The notes beneath the pieces are model-generated. The model was not told where the DNA came from, searched no databases, and saw only the letters and a list, made by a program, of their open reading frames with translations. Positions 4,655 through 33,390 of a stretch of 64,000 nt of DNA are shown in pieces; positions within the stretch are counted from its first letter, which is position 1; each line of letters opens with the position of its first letter. The position numbers were made by a program, and so were the translations under genes. The stretch is from an uncultured Acidobacteriota bacterium (GTDB lineage: Bacteria; Acidobacteriota; Vicinamibacteria; Vicinamibacterales; CAVVIG01): positions 70,151-134,150 of the forward strand of contig CAVYZX010000026.1 of assembly GCA_963773035.1 (NCBI GenBank). Direction: 5' to 3'.

Positions 4655-4757
4655 CTTAGCTCAACCGTCGGGCCGCCGTTGCGGGGTTTTCCGTCCTCTG
4701 TCGCGTTAGGTGGCAGCGGAAAGACCAGTGAGCCAGACCACTGGGTTAGGAGGACGG

Positions 4758-5828: not shown

Positions 5829-5853
5829 CGCACGCGATCAATACGAATTCCGT

Positions 5854-5949
5854 CGAACCACGAAGAGACACGAGGCACACGAAGCTCTCCACTGTAGCTT
5901 CCGGCTTAAGCCGGAAGCCACTTTCGTGTGTCTTCGTTCTTCGTGGTTT
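5854..5949. repeat. REP-like hairpin (family R1, copy 1) nested inside 'cacgaag' inverted arms
   Basis: Core is gcttccggcttaagccggaagc (5897..5918). It is flanked by gaaccacgaagagacacgaggcacacgaag and the imperfect complement ctttcgtgtgtcttcgttcttcgtggttt. Confidence 0.75.
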
Positions 5950-5987
5950 ACCAGCGATCGGCCCAGCTCTGGCGCGCCGATGATGAT

Positions 5988-17814: not shown

Positions 17815-18819
17815 CTACCTCTTCAACGGCGATCGTTCCTCGGCCCGCGCTCCGGACAGTATGGCCGCGATGCCGTAGTTCCCTTCGTGGCACGCATATT
17901 CGAACACCGGACCCACAATCTTCTTCATGGGAATCTCTGCCGACCACGATCTCACCCACGTCGTCGGATCGTCGACGGTGAAGTGATAGAGGAGCGTGTC
18001 CTCGTCAACGCGAGTGAATCGCTCGACGATGTGGAGATTCTCACCGGAGCCTCTGAAATTCGTCCTGTCCGTGAAGTTGGTGGTGTCCACGACCAGCGTG
18101 TCGCCTTCCCACCGGCCGCGCGAGTCTCCCAGCATCTGACGGATGGTCTTGCCGATGTGAGGCCGGCCGTCGAGCGGGATGATTCGCGGGTCGTGAATCA
18201 TCTCGACCACGATGGCGATCGACCCTGGGCTCTGCACAATCTGATAATTGCTGCTGTAGTTGGCCGGCATCATGGGCGGCCCCGCCTGCGGCATGGAGAT
18301 GCAGCGTTCGGCCAGCGATCGATTCTCGGCGCCGTCGAAGGCCCCACCCATCCGCCGGCGCGCCTCAGCACGTTGCGCGCTGTTCCGCTCGCCCTCGGGC
18401 GTCAAGGGCGGCACCCGCCCGTCGCGCGGGTCAACTATCAAAGAAGATCGCCGGGTCGATACAGACTTGCCTCGCTCCCGCCAGAACTCGTTGTACGCGC
18501 GGCCGACGTCGGTTTCGGCCGGACCGTCGCGGCGATCGGCATTCACTTCGGTCACGGCGCGGCGCTCGAATTCATCCGCTTCCGCGTCCGTCAAGAACTC
18601 CTTCCCCGCGAACTCCGCGGGGCGTTCGAGAGGCGTCACCGTGGCGTTGGTCCAGATCCCCTCGAGGCTTGGCCGGCCGTCCGGCGTGCGCGGGAGAACC
18701 CGGGGCCGTGCCGCTGAGGAAGGAGCCTGTGCGACAACCGGCCCAGGCCCGATGCCAACGGCCACACCGACAAACGTCAATGCACCGACTGAGGCGAGAA
18801 TTCCGAGATTCATCTGCAA
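17815..18819 (-). CDS. Exported 'WEGD-motif' family protein, subfamily A
   Basis: Signal peptide. Motifs TPDGRPSLEGIWTN, ERCISMP, RIIPLDGRPH, GDSRGRWEGDTLVVDT, LHIVERFTRVD, EYACHEGNY. Lies 39 nt upstream of its paralog. Confidence 0.85.
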   Translation of the reverse strand: MQMNLGILASVGALTFVGVAVGIGPGPVVAQAPSSAARPRVLPRTPDGRPSLEGIWTNATVTPLERPAEFAGKEFLTDAEADEFERRAVTEVNADRRDGPAETDVGRAYNEFWRERGKSVSTRRSSLIVDPRDGRVPPLTPEGERNSAQRAEARRRMGGAFDGAENRSLAERCISMPQAGPPMMPANYSSNYQIVQSPGSIAIVVEMIHDPRIIPLDGRPHIGKTIRQMLGDSRGRWEGDTLVVDTTNFTDRTNFRGSGENLHIVERFTRVDEDTLLYHFTVDDPTTWVRSWSAEIPMKKIVGPVFEYACHEGNYGIAAILSGARAEERSPLKR

Positions 18820-18835: not shown

Positions 18836-19369
18836 CTAAGGCCTTTGACTCCTCGGTGGTGTAATCCCGTTCAACCGTAGATACACGGCCATCTGACCGT
18901 AAATGTCCCACGTGTGGCCGATGAGAAAGTAGATCACGCGTGCTTTCGATGAAGGCCCCAGATAGGCATTCGTCTGGATGATCTGCATCATTGATTGATC
19001 GGTCTGTTCCTTGATGAGCGCCGAGCCGTAGTCGAACGAGTCGGAGAGCGCCTTGAGGATCTCGGCTTTCGACGTGGCGCCGCGGTTGATGGACGGCGCC
19101 GCGGCTTTTCCGCCGAAGGACTGCAAATACATGATGTTTCCGCCGGCGACGTGCAGGATCTGTTGTCCATAGTCGCGCTGCGCGGGTGTGCTTTTGAACG
19201 CGAACTTCTCTTCGGGCATCGCGTCGGCGATCTTCATCATGATCGCCTTCTGATCGTCCCAGTCCTTCAGCAGTTCCGCGTTCAGGTTTGCCGACTGCCC
19301 GGCAGTCGCGCTTGGCATCGCGAGAAACGAGGCGCCGATGAGGACGAACGTCAGGAGGATCCTTCTCAT
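18836..19369 (-). CDS. DinB-family protein with signal peptide
   Basis: Trimmed to MRRILLTFVLIGASFLAMPSATA. ILHVAGGN... and LIGHTWDIYGQMAVYLRLNG resemble the DinB_2 four-helix-bundle His motifs. Confidence 0.7.
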   Translation of the reverse strand: MRRILLTFVLIGASFLAMPSATAGQSANLNAELLKDWDDQKAIMMKIADAMPEEKFAFKSTPAQRDYGQQILHVAGGNIMYLQSFGGKAAAPSINRGATSKAEILKALSDSFDYGSALIKEQTDQSMMQIIQTNAYLGPSSKARVIYFLIGHTWDIYGQMAVYLRLNGITPPRSQRP

Positions 19370-19391
19370 TGCGTATTCCCTTGGATAGCCG

Positions 19392-20345
19392 CTATTGCCG
19401 TGGCGGTGGCGCCCCACCCCGGCCGGCCGGAGGTGCAGGAGGCGCGGGAGGACCACCACAGTTGGACGTGCACGGCGGCGGAAGCACGTACTTGTCCTTG
19501 AGCTTCTTGCGGAACTCGGGATACATCGTTTCCGGACCGCCGAGCACCGCTTCGACCGGGATGTTGCGTTTCTCGGTCAGCTCGTTCACGAACGGATTTT
19601 TTTCCGGCAGGTAGTGGGGAACGATGGCCAGGTTCTCGTGCAGGTAGGGCAACTCCTCGATCGGTTCGCACGCCGTCGCCGGGAAGATGCTCGCACCGCT
19701 TGGATCCAGCTTGAACGGCGTGGTCAACACGTACGGCTCCGCAAAGATGGCAGGGTCCTCCATGATGCCCATCACGGTCAGGATGTCTCCGTGGCGAACG
19801 AAGTACTCGGTGATGGTCGCTTCGTCGCTGTTGAATCCTCGATGACGCTTGATATCGCCAACCTTGAAGTGTGTCGTGTGCACCCTGAGCGTATCGCCTT
19901 CCCAGTCACCGGTCGTAAAACCGCCATGCGGATGAGGAGCGTTCTTGGACGGATGCGACCGGCCGTCCATCCAGATTGTCGTCGCGTCGCGATCGATCCA
20001 TCCCGCGATGTTCCACGCCACCAGTTTCTGCGTAATCGGATCGGGCTCGATGGTGATTTGCAGGCCGAAGGGGCCGGTGTGCGTGTAGAACGGCGTGTAC
20101 ATCTGACACTGACGCTCCGTCACCGACAGAGCGGCAATGTTGTAGCTCAAAGCTTTCGCGCGGCCATCTTCGTTGAACGGCATCCCGAGGTAGTCAACCG
20201 GCTCTTGAGCGTAGCTGTTGTCCTGGTGGTTCCTCTTCGCCCAAAGGCCCGTCAGATCGACCTGGGCAAACACCGGCACTCCAGACAGCAGCGCGGTCAG
20301 CACCAGCATGGCGCTTCGAACGCGGGGCAATTTGATGATGGTCAT
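19392..20345 (-). CDS. Exported divergent 'WEGD-motif' family protein, subfamily D (member D2), with C-x3-C plus a polyproline tail
   Basis: ORF 19392..21002 trimmed to MTIIKLPRVRSAMLVLTALLSGVPVFAQ at 20345. The upstream 219 codons overlap the neighbouring gene in another frame. Motifs DLTGLW, RQCQMY, TTGDWEGDTLRVHTTHF, EDP, ATACEP. Tail is CTSNCGGPPAPPAPPAGRGGAPPP. Confidence 0.75.
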   Translation of the reverse strand: MTIIKLPRVRSAMLVLTALLSGVPVFAQVDLTGLWAKRNHQDNSYAQEPVDYLGMPFNEDGRAKALSYNIAALSVTERQCQMYTPFYTHTGPFGLQITIEPDPITQKLVAWNIAGWIDRDATTIWMDGRSHPSKNAPHPHGGFTTGDWEGDTLRVHTTHFKVGDIKRHRGFNSDEATITEYFVRHGDILTVMGIMEDPAIFAEPYVLTTPFKLDPSGASIFPATACEPIEELPYLHENLAIVPHYLPEKNPFVNELTEKRNIPVEAVLGGPETMYPEFRKKLKDKYVLPPPCTSNCGGPPAPPAPPAGRGGAPPPRQ

Positions 20346-20356
20346 GAGTGTCTGTC

Positions 20357-21184
20357 CTACCAGCGCGACGAGCAGGGCGTGGGATCCCATTTCGCGCCGT
20401 TCGGTTCCTTCTTGAAATGAAGCCCGATCAGACGCGGCTCGCGGAGGTAGACCGGATCCTCGATCTGCGTCGTGATCGCGAGCCATTCGTCTCCGTTCTG
20501 GCGCTTGAAGACATCCCAGTACTCGGTCAGCGTCGTGTTTGCGCTGTACGGGATACCGTTCTTCCGCAAGTAACCGGGACGAAGATGCGTAGTGACGACT
20601 TTCAGCGATCCGCCCGTCGGCGCCGGCGCCGGCACGTTCCCCGCGGTTCGCGGCACAGGCCGCAGAAATAGCGGGGTGTTCGGCCGAGGGGTTTGCCACA
20701 CGCCCACCGAATCTCCCTGCCACGTCGCTGGCGCGCCACGCTCTCCCTTCCAGTCGCCAAAGTGGAGCATGCGAGTCTGCATGCCCGCATCGGTCTCGAC
20801 CTTCAGCGTGTTCTCGTCCTGCCAGGTGACATGCAGCCGGCCAGGAACGCTCATGAGGGCTGGGGCGCCGTAAGACTTGCACTGTTCGCCAGCCGCTTCG
20901 TCCTTCGCCGGATCCCAAGCGTCGGCGATCTTCTTCGCCTCGAGATTGATCGGGATGTACATGTAGTCGCCTTTGGCAGGCGTCACCATCCGCCAGCGCC
21001 AATCCTGGGTGACGACCGACACCCAGTACCCGGTCAAATCGATCGGAGCCGCGGCTTTAGGCGTCCGAGAAACAGCAGGTGGACCACCGCCCCGCTGCGC
21101 ATGAACGTAGGCGACCGCACCAGACGCCACCACAACCGATGTCACCGCCGCTATCACCGTGCGCAACACACCATCCTCCTGCAT
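20357..21184 (-). CDS. Exported divergent 'WEGD-motif'-related protein, subfamily D (member D1)
   Basis: Signal peptide. Motifs DLTGYW, EQCKSYG, WQGDSVGVW, SLKVVTTHLRPGYLRKNG, EDPVYL, PTPCSS. Lies 11 nt upstream of D2. Confidence 0.7.
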   Translation of the reverse strand: MQEDGVLRTVIAAVTSVVVASGAVAYVHAQRGGGPPAVSRTPKAAAPIDLTGYWVSVVTQDWRWRMVTPAKGDYMYIPINLEAKKIADAWDPAKDEAAGEQCKSYGAPALMSVPGRLHVTWQDENTLKVETDAGMQTRMLHFGDWKGERGAPATWQGDSVGVWQTPRPNTPLFLRPVPRTAGNVPAPAPTGGSLKVVTTHLRPGYLRKNGIPYSANTTLTEYWDVFKRQNGDEWLAITTQIEDPVYLREPRLIGLHFKKEPNGAKWDPTPCSSRW

Positions 21185-21223
21185 TTACTTTTCACTTACT
21201 TTCCACTTTCCACTTTCCACTTT
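21185..21223 (-). repeat. A/G-rich (AAGTGGA)n leader element (family R4, copy 1) filling the whole MBL-D1 intercistronic spacer
   Basis: Minus strand reads TAA-aaagtggaaagtggaaagtggaaagtaagtgaaaagtaa-ATG. A 31-nt block (21217->21187) is identical to 58835..58865. Confidence 0.8.
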
Positions 21224-22252
21224 TTACTTCTTCTGCGTAAGTTCCCTGTAGACCAGCTCGACGAACCTGTCGGTGGTCCACGGACCCGAGTCCGATCCGT
21301 ATCGCCGGCGGTACGACAACGTAGGATTCGCAGCCTTCACCTGTTCCAGCGTCTTGCCTTGATCGATCAGATCCTGAATCCGGTCGCGGATCACCGTCAC
21401 CATGTCCCGGTACTCCAGCAGATCGATTTTGTCGAGTACGCGACCGTGGCCGGGGACCAGGAGGGTACGGTCGGGATTCCACTGAATGGGAAGGTTGGGA
21501 ATGCTCAAGTCCATCAGGTGGTTCAGCGCGTCGATCTCACCCTGCAGCGTCCCACCCTTTTCCACATCGATCACCGGGAAGCGAGTGGTGTCGATGATGT
21601 CGCCGGTCGCGATCACGTCGCCGCGCCGGAAAAAGACGATGGTGTCGCCGTCGGTGTGTGCCGCCGGCTCGTGAATCACCTGGATTCCTTCGCCGTTCAA
21701 GTACATGGAATAGGTCTTGGCAGCAAACGTCTTCGTTGGCCACAGTCCGAGCGGGAATAGAGACTGTTTGCCGGTTGGAGCAGACATCCGCGTCAGGACG
21801 TTTTCGTGCGCCAGCACGCTGGCGCCGCCTGAATTGGTCACCAGGTCGTCGCTCAATCCAGCCCCGGCCGCAATCGCACCAGCCAGGATGCTGAGTCCCG
21901 CTTTCGCGATCGTCTCGTTGCCACCGACATGGTCGGCTTCCATGCTTGTATTAATGATGTAGCGAACCGGCAACGGCGTGATGCGCCGGATCGCCGCCAA
22001 CACTTTGTCCGACATCGCCGTCGAACCAGAATCCACCAGAATCACGCCCACTGGACCGATCTGGATGACGATGTTGCCGCCGGCTCCTGCGATGACGTAG
22101 AAGTTCGGCCGCAGCTCGATGACGTCGAGAGCGTCACGGCTGGGCTCCTGGGCGATCGCGTTCGGCGCCCGGACCGCAGGAGCGAGAATTGCCGCGAACG
22201 TGAGCAGCCAGGCCGCAACCCGCCCGCTGAAAAGACTAGCCATTCGGTTCAC
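21224..22252 (-). CDS. MBL-fold protein, exported, with a degenerate metal motif (SMEADH instead of HxHxDH)
   Basis: Signal peptide MNRMASLFSGRVAAWLLTFAAILAPAVRA. Overall collinear with the MBL at 1860..2939, but the motif reads NTSMEADHVGGN. Keeps AHTDGD and PGHG. Confidence 0.75.
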   Translation of the reverse strand: MNRMASLFSGRVAAWLLTFAAILAPAVRAPNAIAQEPSRDALDVIELRPNFYVIAGAGGNIVIQIGPVGVILVDSGSTAMSDKVLAAIRRITPLPVRYIINTSMEADHVGGNETIAKAGLSILAGAIAAGAGLSDDLVTNSGGASVLAHENVLTRMSAPTGKQSLFPLGLWPTKTFAAKTYSMYLNGEGIQVIHEPAAHTDGDTIVFFRRGDVIATGDIIDTTRFPVIDVEKGGTLQGEIDALNHLMDLSIPNLPIQWNPDRTLLVPGHGRVLDKIDLLEYRDMVTVIRDRIQDLIDQGKTLEQVKAANPTLSYRRRYGSDSGPWTTDRFVELVYRELTQKK

Positions 22253-22303: not shown

Positions 22304-23884
22304 ATGACTCGGTTGCCTCGCCATCCATGGCTGGCCGCCTGCCTCCCGGCCGCGCTCGCCGGCGCCCTGACAGCCATTGCGTTCCTCGATAACACCGGGA
22401 GGAACCTGGTCGTAAGGCGGACGCTGCTTGCGGCCGCTTTCATCATTCTGGTGTGGAACGCGGTGCTGACCGTACGAGCGCGCCGCCGGTTCACCGTCAA
22501 CCTCCACCTGCGGCCGCAGCACTACATCCAGGCAAGCGCACAGGGCTTGGTCCTGCTGTATTGGGGCTGGTACTGGCGACCGGTTTATGACGCCGTCCCG
22601 CTCATCGCTGCACAGCTGATCTTTGCCTACGCCTTCGACATACTCCTCGGCTGGTCGCGCCGCGGCACTTACACACTTGGCTTCGGTCCCGTCCCCGTGA
22701 TCTTCAGCATCAACCTGTTCCTCTGGTTCAAGCCCGACTGGTTTTACCTACAGTTCTTGATGCTGGCGGCAGGCTTCACGGCCAAGGAGCTGATTCGCTG
22801 GAAGCGGGACGAACGGGTCGTCCACATCTTCAACCCCTCCTCTTTCGCGCTCGCATTGATCTCGCTCGGACTGATCCTTACGGGTACGAGCGATATGACG
22901 CGAGGGCAGGACATCGCGATCAGCCAGTTCTATCCACCTCATATGTACTTGATGCTGTTCCTGATTGCCCTGCCCGGGCAGTTCTTGTTCGGGGTCGCGT
23001 CCATGACGTTGTCAGCGGTCCTAACGACTTACCTGTTCGGCGCGGTGTATTTCGCCGTGACAGGCACGTACTTTTTCTACGACTCGTTTGTGCCGATCTC
23101 GGTTTTCCTCGGCATGCACCTTCTTTTCACGGATCCATCGACGTCGCCGCGTTCGGAGCTCGGACGTGTGATCTTTGGCGTGCTCTACGGGCTGAGCGCG
23201 GTTGCTTTGTACCAACTGCTGGGTGCAGCAGGAGTGCCGACTTTCTACGACAAGCTCTTGCAGGTGCCACTCCTGAACCTCTCGGTCCGGCTGTTGGATC
23301 GGGCGTCGCGCTCGAGATGGCTCGAACCATTCAACCCCGCGCGACTCGGTCGATCGCTCGCTCTGCGCCAGCGTCACGTGGCGTACCTGGCGCTGTGGGC
23401 AGTCGTGTTCGCACTGTTGAGCTCGACTCAGGGTGTCGGCGATCATCATCCGGGGCAGTGGCTGCCGTTCTGGGAGCGGGCGTGCAGAGAGGGTCGACCG
23501 CGCGCGTGTGCGTATCTCGCGAGTCTGCAGTCGATCTTCTGCAACGCGGGATCCGGATGGGCGTGCAACGAAGCCGGCATCTTCCAACACGAACGCCCGC
23601 CAGCGGGCCGTGGCGAGATTCCGTCCGATCTCGCGCGAATGAGCGCTTCATTCGCGAGAGGTTGCAATCTCGGGTTCGTGCCCGCGTGCCGGAATGCGGT
23701 CCGGACATCAAACGGGAACCGGCCGTTCGAGCGGTCGGTGCCGACGCTGTCCGACTATCAGATCGTCCTCCGGGGCAGCAAGGGGCCGATCACCGATCGC
23801 ACTACGGCAGCGCTGAACGCACGAGCCTGCGAGCAGGGCTGGCCGGACACATGCGGTCGCACCACAAGCGCGCTGCGAGATTGA
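22304..23884 (+). CDS. Polytopic membrane protein with a C-terminal Cys-rich repeat domain
   Basis: About 9-10 hydrophobic segments (HIFNPSSFALALISLGLIL etc.). C-terminal region of about 130 aa with repeated C-x(4-8)-C pairs (ACREGRPRACAYL, FCNAGSGWACNE, GCNLGFVPACRN, ACEQGWPDTC). Confidence 0.7.
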   Translation: MTRLPRHPWLAACLPAALAGALTAIAFLDNTGRNLVVRRTLLAAAFIILVWNAVLTVRARRRFTVNLHLRPQHYIQASAQGLVLLYWGWYWRPVYDAVPLIAAQLIFAYAFDILLGWSRRGTYTLGFGPVPVIFSINLFLWFKPDWFYLQFLMLAAGFTAKELIRWKRDERVVHIFNPSSFALALISLGLILTGTSDMTRGQDIAISQFYPPHMYLMLFLIALPGQFLFGVASMTLSAVLTTYLFGAVYFAVTGTYFFYDSFVPISVFLGMHLLFTDPSTSPRSELGRVIFGVLYGLSAVALYQLLGAAGVPTFYDKLLQVPLLNLSVRLLDRASRSRWLEPFNPARLGRSLALRQRHVAYLALWAVVFALLSSTQGVGDHHPGQWLPFWERACREGRPRACAYLASLQSIFCNAGSGWACNEAGIFQHERPPAGRGEIPSDLARMSASFARGCNLGFVPACRNAVRTSNGNRPFERSVPTLSDYQIVLRGSKGPITDRTTAALNARACEQGWPDTCGRTTSALRD

Positions 23885-24016: not shown

Positions 24017-24463
24017 TTAGGGCTGCGGCGAAGGCTTCTGATTCAGTTCGTAAGGCGCCCCGGTGCCGGACGATCCCATGAACAGCCTCTTGCCATCTTC
24101 AAACGTGATATCCCGCCCATTCGCCCTGTGCGTCCCGTCCTTCGCCTGGTAACCGTCAATGGCGACCACAGTACCTGGCAGAAGGGACTTTCTCGTGAAG
24201 CCGCGCCGAAAGAGCACGTTTGGAGTGCCCGCCTCGAACGCCCAGTTCTCCACTTTGCCGTCCGGCTTCTTGACATCCAGGTGCAGCCAGACGTGCGGGT
24301 TGACCCACTCCATCTTCGTGACGGTCCCCTTCATCGTCACGGGCTTGTTCGCGTCGAACTCGGCGGCGAACGCGTGGTGCGCCGACAGCGACGCGGCTGT
24401 GACGACCAGAGAGAGACCGAGCCCCGCGGCAGCAACGACGAGCTTCGTTTGCATCTGATTCAA
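24017..24463 (-). CDS. Small exported DUF6152-like protein; predicted mature N-terminus is HHAFAAEFD
   Basis: Signal peptide ...VVTAASLSA followed by HHAFAAEFD, then GTVTKMEWVNPHVWLHLDV. Paralog of 26832..27296. The family name is from memory of the AHHSF...NPH pattern. Confidence 0.75.
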   Translation of the reverse strand: MNQMQTKLVVAAAGLGLSLVVTAASLSAHHAFAAEFDANKPVTMKGTVTKMEWVNPHVWLHLDVKKPDGKVENWAFEAGTPNVLFRRGFTRKSLLPGTVVAIDGYQAKDGTHRANGRDITFEDGKRLFMGSSGTGAPYELNQKPSPQP

Positions 24464-24499
24464 CCTCCTGCGGTCAACTGCGCTCCTCGGATTGACTGC

Positions 24500-25471
24500 T
24501 CACCTTCGGTACCACTCGTGGAGCTTGTCGCCTTCCGGAACCTTACGCGTGATATCGACGATGAGCGTCTCACCCTCCCAGTGCTTGACCAGCGGCTGCC
24601 TGCGCAGGCCGCCGTACATGAACTCTTCAGCGAACTCCATGCAGCGGTATTCGAGCAGCTGCGCGTTTGGTTCCAACCGTCGATAGAGCGGCATGGAGAT
24701 CTTCCACGGCCCGGTGAACACGTTTGGATCCTCGATGGTGACTTCGTACTGGATCGCGTCCTTTGTGATCGGGGTGAAGCGCTCAATCAAATGCAGCGCT
24801 TCGCTGTGATAGTTGCCGGCCCTATCGAACCAGTTCTTGCCGTTGAACTCCGTGACGTCCACGACCAGCGTATCGCCTTCCCACCGGCCGACCGAATGTC
24901 CCATGTAGGTCAGGTCCGGCGGTTCTTCCACCTCGTCGAGGTGGATCGTACGGCCGGTGCTGCTGAATTCGAACGCCATGTGAATCTTGTTGGCGCTCTG
25001 GAAGATCTGGAAAGGATAGGGCATGTACATCGCGCGCGGAATGCCGGGAAGATAGCACTTGAGCTCGGGATCGCGGTCGATCCAACTCTCGCCGTTCTCT
25101 TTCTTGATTTTCGCCGCCTCCGGCTTATAAGGAATGAGGCCGCCGCCTTCGATAACACCTACCGAACCGGGAACTCCGCCCGCTGCACCGAGCGCAAGCA
25201 CGGGCGCCGCGGCTACTCTCGTGTATTCGAATGGATAGGCGCCTTGTTGCGTGACCGCAGCCGGTCGCGCCTCATGAGCCTCGAGGTCCCAATGCGCTTC
25301 GTTCAGCGCCTGCCAGATTCCGCTGAAATCCGGCTTGCCATCGGCTGTACGCGCCACGGTTGGCGTTTGTGACCGGCGACCGGACTGCGTCACTGCCAAG
25401 GTGACAAGGGCGCCAACCACCGCCGCTGCTGCCGCAACAGCAATCGTCGAACCGCTGAACTGACGTGCCAT
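24500..25471 (-). CDS. Exported 'WEGD-motif' family protein, subfamily B
   Basis: Signal/TM N-terminus. Motifs ADGKPDFSGIW, LKCYLPGIP, GHSVGRWEGDTLVVDVTEF, LHLIERF, EDPNVFTGPW, EYRCMEF. Confidence 0.85.
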   Translation of the reverse strand: MARQFSGSTIAVAAAAAVVGALVTLAVTQSGRRSQTPTVARTADGKPDFSGIWQALNEAHWDLEAHEARPAAVTQQGAYPFEYTRVAAAPVLALGAAGGVPGSVGVIEGGGLIPYKPEAAKIKKENGESWIDRDPELKCYLPGIPRAMYMPYPFQIFQSANKIHMAFEFSSTGRTIHLDEVEEPPDLTYMGHSVGRWEGDTLVVDVTEFNGKNWFDRAGNYHSEALHLIERFTPITKDAIQYEVTIEDPNVFTGPWKISMPLYRRLEPNAQLLEYRCMEFAEEFMYGGLRRQPLVKHWEGETLIVDITRKVPEGDKLHEWYRR

Positions 25472-25480
25472 GAACGGCTC

Positions 25481-26746
25481 CTATCTGGTCAACGGATTGG
25501 CTTCCTCTCCAGTGTCGGCAAATCCGCCGGCGAATCCGCCGCACCCCGCGCTGCACAATGTGGCCGGATCCGGCCCACGCCGTTGAGCGAAAGCTTTCTC
25601 CTCCGCGCGCGCGCCCGCGAGCAGGGCTGGCATACCGTAGTTACCTTCGTGGCACCGCGGTTCCTTGTAGATGCGGTTGGCCCGATCGGGCTGCTTGGTA
25701 TATTCCTGTTTCACTGTCCATGGACGGGTCCACGTGGTTGGATCCTCGATCTTTACGACGTACTCCAGCGTGTCCGCATCGACACGAGTCCAGCGCTCGA
25801 CCAGGTGAAGGTTCTCGCGCGAACCCTGGAAATCGGTCTTGGGCGAAAAATTGGTCACATCGACCACCAGCGTCTGACCTTCCCATCGGCCTCGCGAGTC
25901 GCCCCACCATTGGCGGATGTGCTCGGGGAGGTGCGGCCGATCGGTGATGGGAATCACTCGCTGCCACCCTTGGCCCTGCCCCGTGTCGTAGAAGATAGAA
26001 ACCGCCTGGGGCGACTGAATGATCTGCGGGAAGAAGCCGGCGGCTCCGCCGAAGTCCGGGAGCATGGCGGCCATGCATCTCTCACCGAGCGTCCGATCCT
26101 CGGGGCCGTCGGCGCGATTGATGGCGCCCCCGCCTGCGCCACCGGCGGCCACGTACGATGGCGGCGTTTCCGGACGTTTGGGTGAGGGCGGGCTGTACTT
26201 TCCGCCTTCGCAGCCTGGGAGCTTGTTCTTGCAGACGTCGGTCGGTTGAAGCAAGGCGAGCTGGAACTCACGCATGGCCTGCCTGCGCTTCATGGCTTCC
26301 GGAGTCAGCGGCGGAATCTTGCCGTCCGGAGGATCGATGATCAGCGACGTGCGGCGGCCCATCGGTTTGTGCGTCAGAAAGATGTTCGTCGCGTAGGCCC
26401 CACCCACGTCTTGCTCGCTTCCTCGCTCGTAGCGCCGCACGTCTTGGCTCACGATAGCGGTGCGCTGCTTGTCGAGCTCCGCCCGCTCTTCGTCAGTGAA
26501 GAACTCTTTGCCGGCGTAACGGGCCGGCCGTTGCAATGGGACCTCGTAGGTGTTGGTCCAGATCCCTTGCAGATCTGGAGCGCCCCATGACGTCTTCGGT
26601 GCAGGGCCCGATTTCTTTGCCGTTCCGTCGAGTGGTGCCGGTGTCTGCGTCTGACCTTTGACTGAAGGCGGTCCAAGCTTCAGCAGGAACGCCAGCACGA
26701 GCAACGCCACCGCCACACCAATCGACTGCAGAGATCGCTTGGCCAT
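25481..26746 (-). CDS. Exported 'WEGD-motif' family protein, subfamily A (longest A member; carries a Cys- and Pro-rich insertion)
   Basis: Trimmed to MAKRSLQSIGVAVALLVLAFLL. Motifs APDLQGIWTN, ERCMAAM, GDSRGRWEGQTLVVDVTNF, LHLVERWTRVD, PRCHEGNY. Insertion is ...CKNKLPGCEGGKYSPPSPKRPETPP... Confidence 0.85.
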   Translation of the reverse strand: MAKRSLQSIGVAVALLVLAFLLKLGPPSVKGQTQTPAPLDGTAKKSGPAPKTSWGAPDLQGIWTNTYEVPLQRPARYAGKEFFTDEERAELDKQRTAIVSQDVRRYERGSEQDVGGAYATNIFLTHKPMGRRTSLIIDPPDGKIPPLTPEAMKRRQAMREFQLALLQPTDVCKNKLPGCEGGKYSPPSPKRPETPPSYVAAGGAGGGAINRADGPEDRTLGERCMAAMLPDFGGAAGFFPQIIQSPQAVSIFYDTGQGQGWQRVIPITDRPHLPEHIRQWWGDSRGRWEGQTLVVDVTNFSPKTDFQGSRENLHLVERWTRVDADTLEYVVKIEDPTTWTRPWTVKQEYTKQPDRANRIYKEPRCHEGNYGMPALLAGARAEEKAFAQRRGPDPATLCSAGCGGFAGGFADTGEEANPLTR

Positions 26747-26831
26747 CTCAAAGCTCCTGGGAGGCCCTTTCTCTACACCCACCCCTTCGTACTGTCAAGG
26801 AGTTGCCCAGCTCCAACTTCGCGGTGAACTG

Positions 26832-27296
26832 TCATCGCGATCGAACGGGCGCGTCGGCTGCCTTGGGATTCTTGGCCTTCCAACGATCCAGGGCCTGTTG
26901 ACCGATGTTGCCGACGTCGTTCGGCAGCGTAATGCTGCCGTCCGCATGCTGCACGAATTTCAAGACACCTCCCGGTCGACCGTCTTTGAGCGGCCCGGCG
27001 AGAACCATCACCTTCGAACCGACCTTGTAGGTGTCGATGTTGATCCCCTTGGGAATGAGCTGCGCGACGGCAGCGGCCTCGAACGACCAGTCCGTCTGCG
27101 TCCCGTCAGGATTGGTCACCGTGATGGTGAGCCACGAATGCGGGTTGATGAGCGCCCATTGTTTGACCACGCCCGTGACGGCAATTTCGGCGTCGGGCCG
27201 CATGTCGAACATGTTGAACGAATGATGCGCGAGCACCGGCTTACTGGCGAGTGCACCAACAAGGACGACAACGGTTCCGACAGATCGCAGATTCAT
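26832..27296 (-). CDS. Small exported DUF6152-like protein; predicted mature N-terminus is HHSFNMFD
   Basis: Signal peptide ...ALASKPVLA followed by HHSFNMFD, then GVVKQWALINPHSWLTITV. Starts 22 nt after the stop of the upstream subfamily-C gene. Confidence 0.75.
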   Translation of the reverse strand: MNLRSVGTVVVLVGALASKPVLAHHSFNMFDMRPDAEIAVTGVVKQWALINPHSWLTITVTNPDGTQTDWSFEAAAVAQLIPKGINIDTYKVGSKVMVLAGPLKDGRPGGVLKFVQHADGSITLPNDVGNIGQQALDRWKAKNPKAADAPVRSR

Positions 27297-27318
27297 GGGT
27301 GTCCTTTCCGATGTGCCG

Positions 27319-28254
27319 CTACCGCGATTTGCTGCTTTCCGGCGTTCTCGTCACGTCGTTCTGAGGCTGCTTGTGGCCCTGTTCCCCAGGAAGAATCGTC
27401 GTGGTTTTGCCGTCAGCTCCGAGCACGTCGTTGCTCGTCAAGGCGCAGTCCCAATAGCGAATCCGATACTCGTAGTCGGCCTTGACGTAAGACATCGCGA
27501 CGTTCCATGGAGCGGTGAGGCCGACCGAATCGTACATGGTCGCCTGCACGACGATGCGGTCGGGCCGGCCGTTCTGGCCTTTGACGCGCTGCCACACCTC
27601 GATGCCCTGGAGCTCTGCGCTGTTGTCGGGATACCCACGCAAGTAGTCCGCAGCCTTGACGGCGGTCGTCCAGACGACGAGCTTGTCGCCGTCCCAGAAA
27701 CCGATTGAATCACCGAGCCATGTGTGCCCTTCAGGTGTGGCGTGAGGGCTGCCGTCGGTGTAGACGCGGCGCGTCTCGTTCATGTACTCCTGCATCAGCC
27801 ATTGCTGTTTCACACCGAGCGCGAATTCCTTGTGATAGGGCTCGACGAGCCAGCGCGGGTAGGCCGACGGCTCGCAGTGCGTCAGCCGGTCGTAGTAGAC
27901 CTCGCCGATCTCACGTTCCTGTCTTTGCTTTTCTTCGTAGTTGGCGCGATAGGCGGGCGAGAGCGGCGCGTCGACCGGATGGGCCATGCTCATGGTCGCG
28001 ATGCCCGACTGCCAGATCCCGGACCAGTCCGGAAGCGAGGTGACTGTATGTTTGGTGCCGCCGTTGGCGTTCTTGAGGAGAGCGTTGTAGTGCTCCTCGG
28101 CTGACGCATATCGCGCCGGCGGCTGAACAACCCGTTCACGCTGTTCCGGCAACGACCCAAGCGCCTCACGTTGCGCGAGCGCACTGGGCATGAACGCGAC
28201 GGCACAGGATAGACAGAGGCCGGCGAGCGCCAACGACCTGGTGAGAACCCTCAT
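27319..28254 (-). CDS. Exported 'WEGD-motif' family protein, subfamily C (W-D-G-D variant)
   Basis: Trimmed to MRVLTRSLALAGLCLSCAVAFMPSALAQ, with a GGAGG SD upstream. Motifs LPDWSGIWQ, THCEPSAYPRW, LGDSIGFWDGDKLVVWT, YWDCAL. Confidence 0.8.
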   Translation of the reverse strand: MRVLTRSLALAGLCLSCAVAFMPSALAQREALGSLPEQRERVVQPPARYASAEEHYNALLKNANGGTKHTVTSLPDWSGIWQSGIATMSMAHPVDAPLSPAYRANYEEKQRQEREIGEVYYDRLTHCEPSAYPRWLVEPYHKEFALGVKQQWLMQEYMNETRRVYTDGSPHATPEGHTWLGDSIGFWDGDKLVVWTTAVKAADYLRGYPDNSAELQGIEVWQRVKGQNGRPDRIVVQATMYDSVGLTAPWNVAMSYVKADYEYRIRYWDCALTSNDVLGADGKTTTILPGEQGHKQPQNDVTRTPESSKSR

Positions 28255-28411
28255 ACAACCTCCGGTTTCAGCGCTAAAGAATAACCAGTCGGTCCACCCC
28301 ACGCCACTTCCTTCAGTCACGACTCTGGAGCCCCGCTCAAGTCACTACCGCGGGAATGCGCCGGGACGTTCTAGTCCTGTGATGTGATCCGTCTAATATC
28401 ACCTCATATAT

Positions 28412-28440
28412 ATGATGTGTTATATTTACAATCACATCAT
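28412..28440. promoter_or_regulatory. Candidate operator: perfect 8-bp inverted repeat ATGATGTG-N13-CACATCAT in an AT-rich patch, overlapping the regulator's start codon
   Basis: Sequence is gatgtgatccgtctaatatcacctcatatatATGATGTGttatatttacaatCACATCATg. A second, smaller dyad (tgtgat..atcac) lies about 20 nt upstream. The surrounding DNA is strongly GC-rich. Confidence 0.45.
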
Positions 28441-29437
28441 GCACTCGAGAACGGACACGGTGCGAGGCCTCGTCGCACGCCGCGGCGTCGTGGCGAACCG
28501 CGACGTGGCCACGGCGCTCGGGGTGTCGCCCGCCACGAGCCACCGCTTGTTGCGCGCCCTGGTGAAAATCGGGATGCTCCAGCTCCACGGTCGTGGACCC
28601 GCGGCCCGCTATCGGCTGCGCCACGTCCGGCGTCGTTTCCCGCTGGCGGGGCTTGAAGAAGACAGAGTCTGGCGCCAGCTGGCCGGCGACATCGGCCGCA
28701 TTCGCCCGCTGTCTCCCGACGAGGAACACAGCCTCCAGTACGCCGCCAGCGAAATCATCAACAATGCCATCGACCATTCCGGGGGCGCCACCGCGGCCAT
28801 CACCGTCTCCTTCGAAGCCGGCGGCACGACGATCGCTACGATCCGGGACGACGGTGTGGGTGTGTTCCGCAAGGTTCGTGCGGATTTCGGCATCGGCACG
28901 CCCCAGGAGGCCATCGTGCAGCTCGAGAAAGGCAAGCTCACGAGCGACCCGTCGCGCCACAGCGGCGAAGGATTGTTCTTCTCCTCGAAAGCCGTCGCAC
29001 GGTTCCGACTCGAGAGCCAGGGGGTCGCGTGGATCGTCGACAACCTGGTGGGCGACAGCGCGGTAGGTGCGAGCGCAGTACGGAAGGGCACGCAGGTCGT
29101 GCTCACCGTGATTCACGGACGTACGCCCCGCCTGGAAGATGTGTTCCGCGTCTACACCGATCCCGACGTCCTCCGTTTCACGCGCACGCGGAGCACAATC
29201 AAGCTCGGCACGATCGGCGCGACTCTGATGTCGCGCTCGGAGGCACGGCGTGTCGTCCAGCGACTCACCGAGTTCACCCACGCAGTGCTCGACTTCTCCG
29301 GCGTCGATGTCGTCGGGCAAGGTTTCTGCGACGAGGTCTTCCGCGTGTTCGCACGCACGCACCCCGAGGTGACGCTTGAGCCCGTCGGAATGAACGACGC
29401 GGTGGCGTTCATGGTGGCGCGGGCGCGGGCGGCGTGA
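28439..29437 (+). CDS. wHTH - GHKL (HATPase_c-like) - STAS-like (DUF4325-like) fusion protein, putative regulator
   Basis: N-terminal LVARRGVVANRDVATALGVSPATSHRLLRALVKIG is an HTH. EIINNAIDHSGG...IRDDGVGV...GEGLFF are the N/G1/G2-like boxes of anti-sigma-kinase-type ATPases. The C-terminal LDFSGVDVVGQGFCDEVFRVF is STAS-like. Confidence 0.65.
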   Translation: MHSRTDTVRGLVARRGVVANRDVATALGVSPATSHRLLRALVKIGMLQLHGRGPAARYRLRHVRRRFPLAGLEEDRVWRQLAGDIGRIRPLSPDEEHSLQYAASEIINNAIDHSGGATAAITVSFEAGGTTIATIRDDGVGVFRKVRADFGIGTPQEAIVQLEKGKLTSDPSRHSGEGLFFSSKAVARFRLESQGVAWIVDNLVGDSAVGASAVRKGTQVVLTVIHGRTPRLEDVFRVYTDPDVLRFTRTRSTIKLGTIGATLMSRSEARRVVQRLTEFTHAVLDFSGVDVVGQGFCDEVFRVFARTHPEVTLEPVGMNDAVAFMVARARAA

Positions 29438-29517: not shown

Positions 29518-31461
29518 ATGGCCAAACCTACCGACAACGGAGTCGATCGTCGAGTGTTCATCAGACAGGCGGCCACGGGAGCTGCCGCGCTGACATCGAC
29601 CTCTGCGATCGCCGGCGGCCGGCCCGATGACTCTCAAGCTCCTGCTGCGGACACGACGGGAGCAGCTCAGGGCGGGGCGCCACGCGAAGCGGAAGTCTTG
29701 ACCCAGAGCTCGAGCGGCTCCGACTACATGGTGGATGTCCTCAAGTCGCTCGGCCTCGACTACGTCTGCGCCAACCCCGGATCGTCGTTCCGCGGCCTGC
29801 ACGAGTCGGTGGTCAACCACGGTGGGAATACGAGTCCCGAGTTCATCACCTGTTGTCACGAAGAGTCGTCAGTAGCGATGGCGCACGGCTACTTCAAGGT
29901 CGAAGGAAAACCGCTCGGCGTCTTCGCGCACGGCACCGTCGGCCTGCAGCACGCGTCGATGGCGATCTACAACGCGTACTGCGATCGAGTTCCGGTCTAC
30001 ATCGTGCTCGGCAACACGCTCGACGCGACGATGCGGCAGCCGGGCTTCGAGTGGTTGCACAGCGTGCAGGACGCGGCCGCGATGGTGCGCGACTACACGA
30101 AATGGGACGACACGCCAGCCTCGTTGCAGCACTTCGGCGAGTCGGCGGTTCGCGCCTACAAGATCGCGATGACGCCGCCGTACGGACCGGTCGTGATCGT
30201 CGCCGACACCGAGCTGCAGGAGAGGCCGCCAGCGGAAGAATCGACGCTGCGAGTGCCGAAGCTGACGCTCGCCGCACCGCCACAGGGCGATTCCGGCGCC
30301 GTCGCGGAAGTGGCGCGCCTGCTCGTCGCTGCCGAGAATCCGGTGCTCGTTGCCGACAAGATGGCGCGCACTGCCGCAGGGCTGCAACACCTGATCGAGC
30401 TTGCGGAGCTGTTGCAGGCGGCCGTCATCAGCCAGAACGGCCGCATGAATTTTCCGTCCCAGCACCCGCTGAACCACTCGATGCGGAGTGAAGCGGCAGT
30501 CGGTGATGGCGACATGATCCTCGCCCTCGAGGCCGCCAACTTCTTCGGCGCCCTCCACGGCTTCCGCGATCAGCTGCACCGCACCTTCCGGCCGCTTACG
30601 AAGAGTGGAGTCAAGCTGGCCAGCATCACCGCCGGTGATCTTTACCTGAAGGCCAATTACCAGGACTTTCAACGCTACCCCGAGGTGGACGTCGCAATCG
30701 CCGCCGATGCGGAAGCGACACTCCCTTCCTTGATCGAAGCGGTCAAACGGCTGATCACCGACGACCGCCGCCGGGCGTTCCAGGAACGAGGAGCACGGCT
30801 GGCCGCCGCCAGCCAGGCGTCGTTCGAACGCGCGCGCACCGACGCCTCGTACGGATGGGACGCCAGCCCGATCAGCACGGCACGCGCGGCCGCGGAGCTG
30901 TGGGCGCAGATTCGCACCGAGGACTGGGCGCTCGTGTCGGCCTCGGTTGGTCCGTCGGCCGCCGGCTGGGCCGGGTGGCCGCAGCGGTTGTGGAAGTTCG
31001 AGAAGCACTACCACCACATCGGCAGCACGGGCGCCGCCGGCATCGGCTACGGCGCACCGGCCACCGTGGGAGCGGCGTTGGCGAACCGCAAGTACGGCCG
31101 GTTGTCGGTGAGCATTCAGAACGACGGCGATCTCATGTACGGCCCGGGCGCGCTCTGGACCGCCGCTCATCACCGAATCCCGCTGCTGATCGTCATGAAC
31201 AACAACCGGGCGTATCACGAGGAAGTGATGCACCTGCAGCGGATGGCCGGCCGCCGCAGCCGAGGGATCGATCGTGCGGGCCTCGGGACGACGATGGAGA
31301 ACCCGACGATCGATTTCGCAAAACTCGCGCAGAGTCTTGGCGTTTACGCCGAGGGACCGGTATCGAACCCGCGCGATCTCGGACCGGCCATCAAACGTGC
31401 GCTCGACGTCGTGAAGCGCGGGGAGCCAGCGCTGGTAGACGCGGTGATGCAGCCTCGGTAA
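29518..31461 (+). CDS. Thiamine-pyrophosphate-dependent enzyme (acetolactate-synthase-like fold) with an N-terminal Tat-type signal
   Basis: MAKPTDNGVDRRVFIRQAATGAAALTSTSAIAGG, then the TPP_enzyme_N pattern (DYMVDVLKSLGLDYVCANPGSS), and a C-terminal GIGYGAPATVGAALA...IQNDGDLMY TPP-binding motif. Confidence 0.8.
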   Translation: MAKPTDNGVDRRVFIRQAATGAAALTSTSAIAGGRPDDSQAPAADTTGAAQGGAPREAEVLTQSSSGSDYMVDVLKSLGLDYVCANPGSSFRGLHESVVNHGGNTSPEFITCCHEESSVAMAHGYFKVEGKPLGVFAHGTVGLQHASMAIYNAYCDRVPVYIVLGNTLDATMRQPGFEWLHSVQDAAAMVRDYTKWDDTPASLQHFGESAVRAYKIAMTPPYGPVVIVADTELQERPPAEESTLRVPKLTLAAPPQGDSGAVAEVARLLVAAENPVLVADKMARTAAGLQHLIELAELLQAAVISQNGRMNFPSQHPLNHSMRSEAAVGDGDMILALEAANFFGALHGFRDQLHRTFRPLTKSGVKLASITAGDLYLKANYQDFQRYPEVDVAIAADAEATLPSLIEAVKRLITDDRRRAFQERGARLAAASQASFERARTDASYGWDASPISTARAAAELWAQIRTEDWALVSASVGPSAAGWAGWPQRLWKFEKHYHHIGSTGAAGIGYGAPATVGAALANRKYGRLSVSIQNDGDLMYGPGALWTAAHHRIPLLIVMNNNRAYHEEVMHLQRMAGRRSRGIDRAGLGTTMENPTIDFAKLAQSLGVYAEGPVSNPRDLGPAIKRALDVVKRGEPALVDAVMQPR

Positions 31462-31471
31462 GAACCCCCTG

Positions 31472-32512
31472 CTAGCGGCTCGATTCCTTCTCTTGTGCGC
31501 GTGCGCCGGTCAGGATTCCCTCGAGGCCGGTATTGTCTTCATGACACGCGTATTCGTAAATCTGTTCGCTCGTGTGCTTCAACGGAATCATCACGGTCCA
31601 CGGCCTCACCCAAGTGGCCGGATCGTCGAACGTCACTTCGTACTTGATCGTGTCCGCCGCCACTCGGGTGAGACGCTCCGTGACATGCAGGTTTTCAGTC
31701 GACCCCATGAGGCGACTCTTGGGTGAGTAGTTCTTCGTGTCGATGACGAGCGTGTCGCCCTCCCAGTGTCCCCGTGAGTCGCCCAGCCATTGCTGGATGT
31801 TCGAACCGACGTGCGGCCGGTTGTCGAGCGGAATGATCCGCGAGTCGTGAATCGTCTCCATCGTGATCACGACATGGTCGCGGGTCTGCTGGATCTGATA
31901 GTAGCTGTTGTAGCCGGCACCAAGGCGCGGGGAGCCGAACGTGATGCAGCGCTCGGACAGGCTGCGATCTTCCCACGAGTCTGCGAGCGGACTGTCGAAG
32001 CTTGGCGCGGGTCTGGCGGCAGCACGTCGCTGCGCTTCCGGGGTGAGCGCAGGAATCCGACCGTCGGCCGGGTCGGTAATCAGCGACGTGCGGTTGTCGA
32101 ATTCTCGTTCGACCAACCAGAAATGATTGTAGTCGCCGGTGCGGCCGTCGACCGAGGTGAACGATTTCGCGCGCTCGAGCGCAGCTTCGAACACGCTGTC
32201 ACCGAACGCGGCGTCGCCATCGCCGCTGAAGAGCTCGGCGGCAGCGGCCTTCACGGCTGCCAGCTCCTCGGGCGTCAGCACCGCCTTGCCGGCAAGCGAC
32301 GGTGGCCGTTGCAGCGGCGTCGCCACGTTGTTCCCCCAGACGCCCTGCAGATCGGGCTGACCATCGACGGTACGAGAAACCGTCCACCGGCCGTCCTTTG
32401 CAGCAGGCGCCTTGCTTGTCGATTGCGCCAGGACCGAAGGCGATATCCACGTCAACGGGCCCGCACCGAACACTGTCAATGTTGCGATGATTACGACGTG
32501 TTGTCGGCTCAT
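31472..32512 (-). CDS. Exported 'WEGD-motif' family protein, subfamily A
   Basis: Trimmed to MSRQHVVIIATLTVFGAGPL. Motifs VDGQPDLQGVWGN, ERCITFG, RIIPLDNRPH, GDSRGHWEGDTLVIDT, LHVTERLTRV, EYACHEDN. Confidence 0.85.
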   Translation of the reverse strand: MSRQHVVIIATLTVFGAGPLTWISPSVLAQSTSKAPAAKDGRWTVSRTVDGQPDLQGVWGNNVATPLQRPPSLAGKAVLTPEELAAVKAAAAELFSGDGDAAFGDSVFEAALERAKSFTSVDGRTGDYNHFWLVEREFDNRTSLITDPADGRIPALTPEAQRRAAARPAPSFDSPLADSWEDRSLSERCITFGSPRLGAGYNSYYQIQQTRDHVVITMETIHDSRIIPLDNRPHVGSNIQQWLGDSRGHWEGDTLVIDTKNYSPKSRLMGSTENLHVTERLTRVAADTIKYEVTFDDPATWVRPWTVMIPLKHTSEQIYEYACHEDNTGLEGILTGARAQEKESSR

Positions 32513-32580
32513 GTGAAGCTCCTTGCTTCTCACCTCACAGAAAGCGCTCGTCTTGTCGCCCCATCTGGTTTGGTTGCAAA

Positions 32581-33390
32581 TCAAGGGGTGGCGATGGGCG
32601 TGGTCGCCATGCCTTCTGTGATCTCGATCTCAGTGCCCCACGGGTCGGTGATGTAGACGATTCGGAGACCCGATGCGTTGGCGCTGTTGCGGATGGCGGC
32701 ATCGGTTTTGATGCCCGCTGCCTGCAACTTAGCGACGAAGGCATCGATGTTCTTCACCTCGAATCCGATGTGATCGACCGAGCGGCCCTTTGTCGGAGCC
32801 TGGGCCGTTTCCGCTTTGGCCATCGCGATTTCCGTGCCCGGCACGTTGGCCGTCTCGAACGGACCTCGCTTCCCTGCCACGGCGCCAAAGGTCTGCACGT
32901 ACCACTTCTGTGCTTCCAGCGGATCCGGAACGCTCAGATGAATATGGTGCATTTGAATCGGTGCAGAAATCGATGTGTTTTCGTAGATCTCAATCCGGAC
33001 ATTGTCGGGGCCCGTCAGAAATCCCTGACCGACCTGCGGGTTGTTCGCTGGTTCCCACGTCAAGCCGGCCGCCTTCCATTTGGCGACCGAACCGGCAAAG
33101 TCTCTGACGTAGAAGCCGAAGTGATTCATCGTCGATCCAACCGTCCCTCCGGTGGGATCCTGTTTCCGAAGCAGGATGTAGATGCCTGGAAACTGGACCA
33201 TCGTGAGCTTCTCGCGCTGCACGATGATGCCGCCGACGGTCGTCCAGAAACGCGACTGGACGTCCACATCAGTCGCATTGAGGTGGATGTGTCCGATGGC
33301 TGCGCCGGCGGCGTTGGGCGGCGCGAGTTGGGCGAACGCGGGCGTCGGAATGAGTGCGGCAAGAGCGAGCAGGAGAAGAGGTGTCTTCAT
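32581..33390 (-). CDS. VOC (glyoxalase/bleomycin-resistance/dioxygenase) family protein, two domains, exported
   Basis: Signal peptide MKTPLLLLALAALIPTPAFA. Repeated IGHIHLNA / MHHIHLSV / VDHIGFEV beta-alpha-beta-beta-beta module starts. Confidence 0.8.
   Translation of the reverse strand: MKTPLLLLALAALIPTPAFAQLAPPNAAGAAIGHIHLNATDVDVQSRFWTTVGGIIVQREKLTMVQFPGIYILLRKQDPTGGTVGSTMNHFGFYVRDFAGSVAKWKAAGLTWEPANNPQVGQGFLTGPDNVRIEIYENTSISAPIQMHHIHLSVPDPLEAQKWYVQTFGAVAGKRGPFETANVPGTEIAMAKAETAQAPTKGRSVDHIGFEVKNIDAFVAKLQAAGIKTDAAIRNSANASGLRIVYITDPWGTEIEITEGMATTPIATP

Follow-up and report, generated by a model that had tools for sequence, protein, structure and literature searches.

Why does a single bacterial operon twice place a small secreted protein behind a large one? 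The question is raised by positions 24017 to 28254 of a 64,000-nucleotide stretch of contig CAVYZX010000026.1, from an uncultured member of the Vicinamibacterales; this whole 64-kb stretch is called the window below. Five co-oriented open reading frames (ORFs) occupy the minus strand in the order C1, small1, A3, B2, small2. The two small proteins belong to the Pfam family DUF6152, and the three large ones are members of a family here termed WEGD. Comparative analysis shows that the pairing of large and small genes is real, old and shared across phyla.

Organization of the five-gene locus

The features of the locus are as follows.

28254 to 27319, minus strand: C1, 311 amino acids, WEGD subfamily C, predicted secreted; first gene of the C-DUF6152 cassette
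27296 to 26832, minus strand: small1, 154-amino-acid DUF6152 protein; signal peptide, then His-His as the predicted mature N-terminus
26746 to 25481, minus strand: A3, 421 amino acids, WEGD subfamily A, predicted secreted; first gene of the A-B-DUF6152 triad
25471 to 24500, minus strand: B2, 323 amino acids, WEGD subfamily B, predicted secreted; immediate partner of small2
24454 to 24017, minus strand: small2, 145-amino-acid DUF6152 protein, counted from the ATG at 24454
26747 to 26831, minus strand: 85-nucleotide (nt) gap between the modules, with a candidate internal promoter and the A3 ribosome-binding site
28255 to 28411, no strand: AT-rich, divergent intergenic region 5' of C1; presumed operon promoter region

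All five ORFs, and their order, lie where the original prediction, made from the DNA letters alone, had placed them. Its intergenic gaps of 22, 85, 9 and 36 nt are arithmetically correct for the coordinates it used, and its end of small2 at 24017 stands, but its start for that gene does not. The proposed TTG at 24463 falls within an AGGAGG ribosome-binding site; the ATG at 24454 lies 9 nt past this site and yields 145 amino acids, the length of all close homologues. The last gap is therefore 45 nt.

Gene arrangement is consistent with a single transcription unit: all five genes share one strand, the gaps range from 9 to 85 nt, and a ribosome-binding site precedes each gene, with GGAGG directly 5' of the C1 ATG. 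A promoter and terminator scan found terminator-like and consensus promoter matches inside the unit only at chance level, and it called no consensus sigma-70 promoter in 28255-28411. The 85-nt gap contains TTGACA and TAGAGA separated by 17 nt, so a second promoter before A3 is possible; the scan did not call this site.

Conservation of the large/small pairing

Both small proteins are clear members of DUF6152 (PF19649, gathering cut-off 27 bits): small1 scores 87.9 bits (E=5e-25, model positions 5-97 of 98) and small2 114.2 bits (E=3e-33, positions 3-94 of 98). They are the only two copies in the window, and on alignment they prove paralogous as predicted, with 24% identity, a phmmer E-value of 5e-12 and invariant positions in common. 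C1, A3 and B2 are likewise homologous to one another (23-37% local identity) and belong to subfamilies C, A and B, so that three of the four subfamilies indeed stand side by side. The cassette of a large gene followed by a small one is thus present twice, as C1-small1 and B2-small2, with large partners from subfamilies C and B. Because the small proteins share only 24% identity and C1 and B2 only about 26% local identity, and because each cassette keeps its own partner, the evidence supports an ancient and maintained pairing rather than a recent tandem duplication, in line with the original prediction.

The pairing was followed in two sets of loci, 80 from genomes, centred on small2-type DUF6152 genes, and 38 from metagenomes, centred on small1-type genes. 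Their six-frame ORFs were searched with hidden Markov models built from the window paralogues and from a DUF6152 alignment. The count covered 83 DUF6152 genes from the 80 genome loci that had 1.2 kb or more of upstream DNA, and a partner was defined as a same-strand family gene ending no more than 250 nt upstream. By this definition 70 of the 83 genes have a WEGD partner, at a median gap of about 40 nt, where local WEGD density predicts about 2, an adjacency well in excess of chance. The binomial figure ignores relatedness among the genomes, so the diversity of arrangements weighs more than the count itself.

At least six distinct conserved arrangements occur, which may be written with S for the DUF6152 gene and L for a large gene: A-B-S, B-A'-S, C-S, S-then-w4710-type, the sphingomonad L-S-L-S and the Croceibacterium S-S-L. 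Small1-type genes are always preceded by a C1-type gene (about 22 metagenome loci, C1 orthologues 71-96% identical). In the Vicinamibacterales, most small2-type loci show an A3-type gene, then a B2-type gene, then DUF6152; in Bryobacteraceae/Terriglobia the order is a B-like gene, an A-clade gene and then DUF6152. A third, distant DUF6152 clade lies upstream of genes of the w4710/w43402 type (L002, L019, L043, L052, L106). DUF6152 clades match partner clades one to one. The C-DUF6152 and A-B-DUF6152 modules are separate in most genomes, and an A-clade gene follows small1 only in the closest relatives of the window (L093, L095).

Beyond the Acidobacteriota, the pairing recurs in cultured Sphingomonadales. 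In isolates and metagenome-assembled genomes the large and small genes either share 4 nt or adjoin without a gap; Novosphingobium humi, for example, carries a large gene and a DUF6152 gene with a 4-nt overlap. In Croceibacterium atlanticum, two DUF6152 genes precede a large gene, behind which lies a gene for a TonB-dependent receptor. The doubled large-small-large-small layout of the window is found in Sphingobium sp. TomTYG65 (L124, AP027331.1, 299627-305582) and Novosphingobium sp. KACC 22771 (L126). In addition, a metagenome contig (L117, FTFB01009840.1) carries a fusion ORF at 5744-6733 that joins a signal peptide, DUF6152 and WEGD domains; it directly follows an A-clade WEGD gene and runs off the contig end. 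Among the top 150 WEGD representatives no DUF6152 fusion was found, only WEGD-WEGD tandems.

Mirror-tree analysis of 30 complete A-B-DUF6152 triads gives a partial r(B,DUF|A) of 0.48 and a partial r(A,DUF|B) of 0.17. DUF6152 divergence therefore tracks the immediate partner B more than A. A-B-DUF6152 is itself a conserved unit in which A3 is not a bystander.

Histidine signature and predicted fold of DUF6152

The most distinctive feature of DUF6152 is its predicted mature N-terminus. With a slash marking the cleavage position, which is predicted from sequence only, small1 reads VLA/HHSF, and 125 of 128 DUF6152 sequences fit [VLA]-x-A/HH with an NPH motif 18-35 residues further on. Three histidines are invariant in the alignment: H29, H30 and H57, the last being the NPH histidine. 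The sequence signature of a histidine-brace copper site combines a mature N-terminal His with a further invariant His (PMC10952591). On predicted cleavage, the same 125 sequences would present the N-terminal His of histidine-brace proteins of the LPMO, CopC, PmoB and YcnI type, and the set of three fits a histidine-brace-like or three-His metal site as far as sequence can indicate. The Pfam entry assigns no function to DUF6152, and literature searches for DUF6152, DUF6644 and DUF2214 turned up no relevant papers.

An AlphaFold2 model of small2 has a mean predicted local distance difference test (pLDDT) score of 76.9, with a core near 90, and its order of strands and helix fits an OB fold, which is a closed barrel of five beta-strands with a helix between strands 3 and 4. 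Foldseek gives as its top matches SSB/Rim1, the LysRS anticodon domain and CcmE (probability 1.0, E-values of 9e-4 to 1e-2, template-modelling (TM) scores of 0.52-0.64). These matches support, with moderate confidence in the predicted structure, the assignment of DUF6152 to the OB fold.

The WEGD family

Twelve WEGD paralogues lie in the window, namely C1, A3, B2 and nine further ORFs, and their grouping agrees with the four subfamily labels A to D proposed earlier. Subfamily A has five members, B three, C two and D two in tandem.

4710 to 5828, plus strand: subfamily B
16795 to 17775, minus strand: subfamily A
17815 to 18819, minus strand: subfamily A
about 19392 to 20350, minus strand: subfamily D
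20357 to 21184, minus strand: subfamily D
24500 to 25471, minus strand: subfamily B (B2)
25481 to 26746, minus strand: subfamily A (A3)
27319 to 28254, minus strand: subfamily C (C1)
31472 to 32584, minus strand: subfamily A
39074 to 40507, plus strand: subfamily C
43402 to 44295, minus strand: subfamily B
62551 to 63588, minus strand: subfamily A

DUF6152 was also sought upstream of the other window paralogues, such as the one at 4710, and none was found. The pairing belongs to particular WEGD subfamilies and is not universal.

The family is very large. When 1.84 billion cluster representatives (50% identity) are searched with a family profile, 29,032 relatives pass E<=1e-3, of which 15,371 also pass E<=1e-10, and WEGD genes cover 16% of the related loci. 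Established databases offer no name for it: C1, A3 and B2 match zero families in Pfam-A, NCBIfam and PADLOC scans, and Pfam and NCBIfam return none for any large paralogue. Scanning a 31-member WEGD alignment at E-values up to 10 gave nothing consistent, the sole match being DUF3471 in one member. Sequence searches of PDB chains with B2, small2 and the A2 and A3 profiles found no meaningful match.

Members share the motifs RTxDGxPDLxGxW, GxSxGxWEGDTLVV, ER and DP, together with a conserved cysteine pair (C139 and C277). A signal sequence stands at the N-terminus of every WEGD member, and all five operon proteins have signal peptides. The signal sequences, shared motifs and cysteine pair together indicate an extracytoplasmic location.

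The AlphaFold2 model of B2 averages a pLDDT of 62.6 and contains eight consecutive antiparallel strands at 80-90. Its best Foldseek matches, which are weak, are calycins of the FABP/CRBP type (E about 2e-3, TM 0.45-0.53 by target). Searches of PDB chains and of the 31-member alignment gave no sequence or profile match of WEGD to any calycin family. A calycin-like barrel for the large proteins may therefore be treated as a lead rather than a finding.

Two further features concern how WEGD domains might associate. B2 residues of about 295-323 (window 24500-24590) hold an extra copy of the signature hairpin, WEGETLIVD, beside WEGDTLVVD at 197-205. This C-terminal WEGxTLxVD repeat is kept in all B2 orthologues and could serve in docking or in strand exchange. 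Some proteins also carry a tandem of two WEGD domains on one chain (P0361, P0364, P0377, P0386, P0413), which is consistent with neighbouring A and B genes working as partners.

Membrane proteins and other neighbours

The original prediction recognized the large/small pairing and overlooked the usual neighbour of the module, a membrane protein. Two genes flank the operon in the window.

22304 to 23884, plus strand: convergent neighbour; polytopic membrane protein of 526 amino acids, with a distant likeness to RnfD/NqrB and a Cys-rich domain at its C-terminus
28412 to 29437, plus strand: divergent neighbour; HTH_IclR (IclR-type), HATPase_c (histidine-kinase-like ATPase) and STAS-like DUF4325 domains

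Homologues of the convergent gene stand beside small2-type DUF6152 genes in 25 of the 80 genome loci, on the same strand or convergent. The protein contains a TDPxTxP motif and matches Pfam PF03116 at E=4.5e-5 with 23.4 bits, below the cut-off of 27.7; NCBIfam nqrB/rnfD models give 17-19 bits against cut-offs above 200, and PDB chain 7zc6_D gives E=0.01. No further Rnf or Nqr genes lie near it. These scores suggest only a distant relative of RnfD/NqrB, outside the family proper. Its recurrence makes it the likely membrane partner of the A-B-DUF6152 triad.

About 19 of the 80 loci, other than those with the RnfD-like gene, have a tandem pair of DUF6644 genes in its place. The proteobacterial plasmids share this arrangement, and DUF6644 genes accompany DUF6152 in Sphingobium, Novosphingobium, Azospirillum and Caballeronia; two of them lie 3' of the doubled layout in both L124 and L126. 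The proteins have four transmembrane helices with an invariant His in the first. Four of 15 members match DUF2214 (best E=1.5e-3, 18.9 bits against a cut-off of 34.1) and one of 15 matches CopD below threshold (E=0.013), which hints at a link to CopD-like membrane proteins that falls short of family membership.

TonB-dependent receptor genes adjoin the module in Croceibacterium and Sphingobium (L124), and a TonB-receptor-like gene adjoins DUF6152 in L110. Upstream of the doubled layout in L124, on the same strand, are genes for a monooxygenase and a peroxiredoxin. A small cytochrome c'-like protein with a CxxCH motif is encoded beside two DUF6644 genes in Novosphingobium humi (L121, 1792-3285) and in L119 (17933-19499), a recurrence that spans an alphaproteobacterial plasmid and an acidobacterial contig; no such gene was found in the window. 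For the C1-small1 cassette, a search for a third conserved neighbour yielded none.

The divergent regulator at 28412-29437 adjoins the module in none of the other loci, and for this reason it is not counted as part of the system. Next to it, 29518-31461 (plus strand) encodes a thiamine-diphosphate (ThDP) enzyme with all three TPP domains and a twin-arginine (TAT) leader, DRRVFIRQAATGAAAL. The leader implies that this ThDP enzyme reaches the periplasm already folded, an unusual case. On the other side, 18836-22252 (minus strand) holds co-oriented secreted genes for an MBL-fold hydrolase, two tandem D-subfamily WEGD proteins and a DinB-family protein. The hydrolase is weakly SoxH-related, of the quinoprotein-relay type, and the group may be another operon built on the WEGD family.

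Proposed module and alternative explanations

With a probability of about 0.5, the operon encodes a periplasmic heteromeric module in which DUF6152, docked on its own particular barrel partner, would bind a metal or ligand and would communicate with a membrane protein. Gene order, homology, conserved pairing, secretion signals and invariant residues are observed and the folds are modelled; from these we infer complex formation, metal binding and a link to a membrane partner. The operon would comprise two diverged copies of one extracytoplasmic module, C1 with DUF6152 and A3 and B2 with DUF6152, each combining a Sec-secreted WEGD beta-barrel and a small secreted OB-fold protein. Large and small proteins would be produced in a constant ratio and come together in the periplasm, where A and B of the triad would likewise bind one another. 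The handling of the metal or ligand would fall to DUF6152, with copper as the first candidate metal, at lower confidence than the module as a whole. The DUF6152 site would relay the metal, or a ligand carrying it, between the barrel and a membrane protein, which here would be the RnfD-like neighbour and in other lineages the DUF6644 pair, sometimes beside a TonB-dependent receptor.

Several points weigh against this proposal. Most loci come from related Acidobacteriota, so the counts are not independent events; the best related loci are about 85% identical to the window in protein sequence. Ten of the twelve large genes in the window lack DUF6152; barrel proteins therefore do not generally depend on it. 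No invariant His or Met marks the WEGD proteins as metalloproteins, the invariant residues of the family being Arg, Glu, Asp, Trp, Gly and Cys. For B2 the model is mediocre and the structural matches are weak, and the RnfD-like assignment is based on sub-threshold scores. A DUF6644 gene was looked for in the window and is absent there. The DUF6152-WEGD fusion was seen once only and may be a sequencing error. Literature searches turned up neither an experiment nor a publication on DUF6152 or on the WEGD family.

A possible, though doubtful, alternative holds that the link is functional and not physical. DUF6152 would then be an unattached carrier in the periplasm whose main partners are TonB-dependent receptors or the DUF6644 or RnfD-like membrane proteins, and the WEGD proteins would be enzymes or binders that act one after another on the same substrate, co-regulated without forming a complex. 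This account draws on DUF6152 genes that have no large neighbour: in Azospirillum and Caballeronia DUF6644 is the sole neighbouring partner, in L110 the gene adjoins the TonB-receptor-like gene, and in L113-115 it is flanked by amidohydrolase and DAHP synthase genes. Most WEGD genes, moreover, are unpaired, and secreted enzymes abound in the neighbourhood (MBL-fold, VOC, TAT-targeted TPP enzyme, sulfatase and BBE oxidase). A stoichiometric complex nevertheless fits better with the very tight spacing and 4-nt overlaps, the fusion ORF in L117, the strict clade-to-clade partner fidelity, and the closer tracking of the immediate partner than of the other operon member.

DUF6152 might instead be a dedicated accessory of its barrel partner, whether as a chaperone for folding or secretion, as an inhibitor or as a factor in maturation, with no ligand of its own. 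The position of the small gene directly downstream of its partner, the specificity of partner clades and the frequent use of OB folds as protein- or ligand-binding adaptors would all suit such a role. It is nonetheless improbable, since DUF6152 occurs in Proteobacteria with DUF6644 and no WEGD gene, most WEGD proteins fold without DUF6152, and three invariant histidines, including one at the mature N-terminus, are hard to square with a pure chaperone.

A reading in terms of defence or toxin-antitoxin function was dropped because all products carry secretion signals; the PADLOC defence library also gave no match. Finally, chance adjacency in a genome crowded with paralogues (12 in 64 kb, in a family that fills a sizeable share of related loci), or a remnant of recent tandem duplication, is refuted by the 70 of 83 genes with partners, by clade fidelity, by the retention of the pair in another phylum including cultured isolates, and by the mere 24% or so of identity between the two cassettes.

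Comparison with known systems

Several characterized systems resemble the proposed heteromeric module in logic, among them CopC/CopD, YcnI/YcnJ, CusF and CcmE; the likeness is one of analogy, as none is homologous and the large barrel has no counterpart in any of them. The copper-uptake pairs CopC/CopD and YcnI/YcnJ, like DUF6152, include a small Sec-secreted beta protein with a mature N-terminal His. Relatives of the window also encode DUF6152 next to a multi-helix membrane protein: CopD is an eight-transmembrane protein, and the two four-transmembrane DUF6644 proteins show weak DUF2214/CopD matches. Differences are substantial, however. DUF6152 has a predicted OB fold in place of a cupredoxin or Ig-like fold, shares no sequence similarity with these proteins and is only a candidate for copper binding. 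The DUF6644-CopD link is sub-threshold, the window has no DUF6644 gene, and CopC/CopD lacks a WEGD-like large partner.

The Cu(I)/Ag(I) chaperones CusF/SilF offer a second parallel, as small periplasmic OB-like barrels that hand metal to a partner, the role proposed here for DUF6152. CusF, however, binds metal through a Met/His/Trp site within its barrel and is encoded in an RND efflux operon, whereas DUF6152 has no Met motif, carries an N-terminal His-His and has no efflux genes nearby. The haem chaperone CcmE is also a periplasmic OB-fold protein, appears at Foldseek ranks 13 and 34 (TM 0.55-0.61) and holds its ligand by a His on a flexible end; cytochrome c'-like genes near the module in Novosphingobium humi and L119 add to the likeness. 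It differs in being membrane-anchored, in using a C-terminal His and in being part of the Ccm system, and it has no sequence similarity to DUF6152.

For the large proteins, the nearest comparison is with bacterial calycins (lipocalin Blc, YceI, ZinT and nitrobindin-like proteins), which are secreted up-and-down antiparallel barrels, a fold that the FABP/CRBP and other calycin matches of the model may suggest for B2. Those matches are weak, and WEGD has its own motifs and cysteine pair.

Significance for the WEGD family and its hosts

WEGD is among the bigger protein families lacking a name and is heavily expanded in Vicinamibacterales, an order of abundant and poorly understood soil bacteria. 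The searches made here found no published link between DUF6152 and WEGD, and no entry for the WEGD family in Pfam, NCBIfam, PDB or the literature. A conserved DUF6152 partner with a His-His N-terminus, together with recurrent membrane neighbours, gives a first handle on the function of the family. The module also resides on plasmids of the cultured Novosphingobium humi (strain KACC 19094, NZ_CP117419.1), Sphingobium sp. TomTYG65 (pTomTYG65a) and Croceibacterium atlanticum, so the question is accessible to experiment in cultured Sphingomonadales.

More speculatively, and on balance unlikely at present, DUF6152 may represent a new class of periplasmic metal-binding proteins, histidine-brace-like on an OB fold, that with WEGD and CopD-like or RnfD-like partners would form a widespread, unrecognized system for metals or metal chelates in soil Acidobacteriota and Alphaproteobacteria. 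Should copper bind at the histidine site, the histidine-brace proteins, which are few, would gain a new fold in DUF6152; should the site be a new metal centre, the module would be further removed from anything known.

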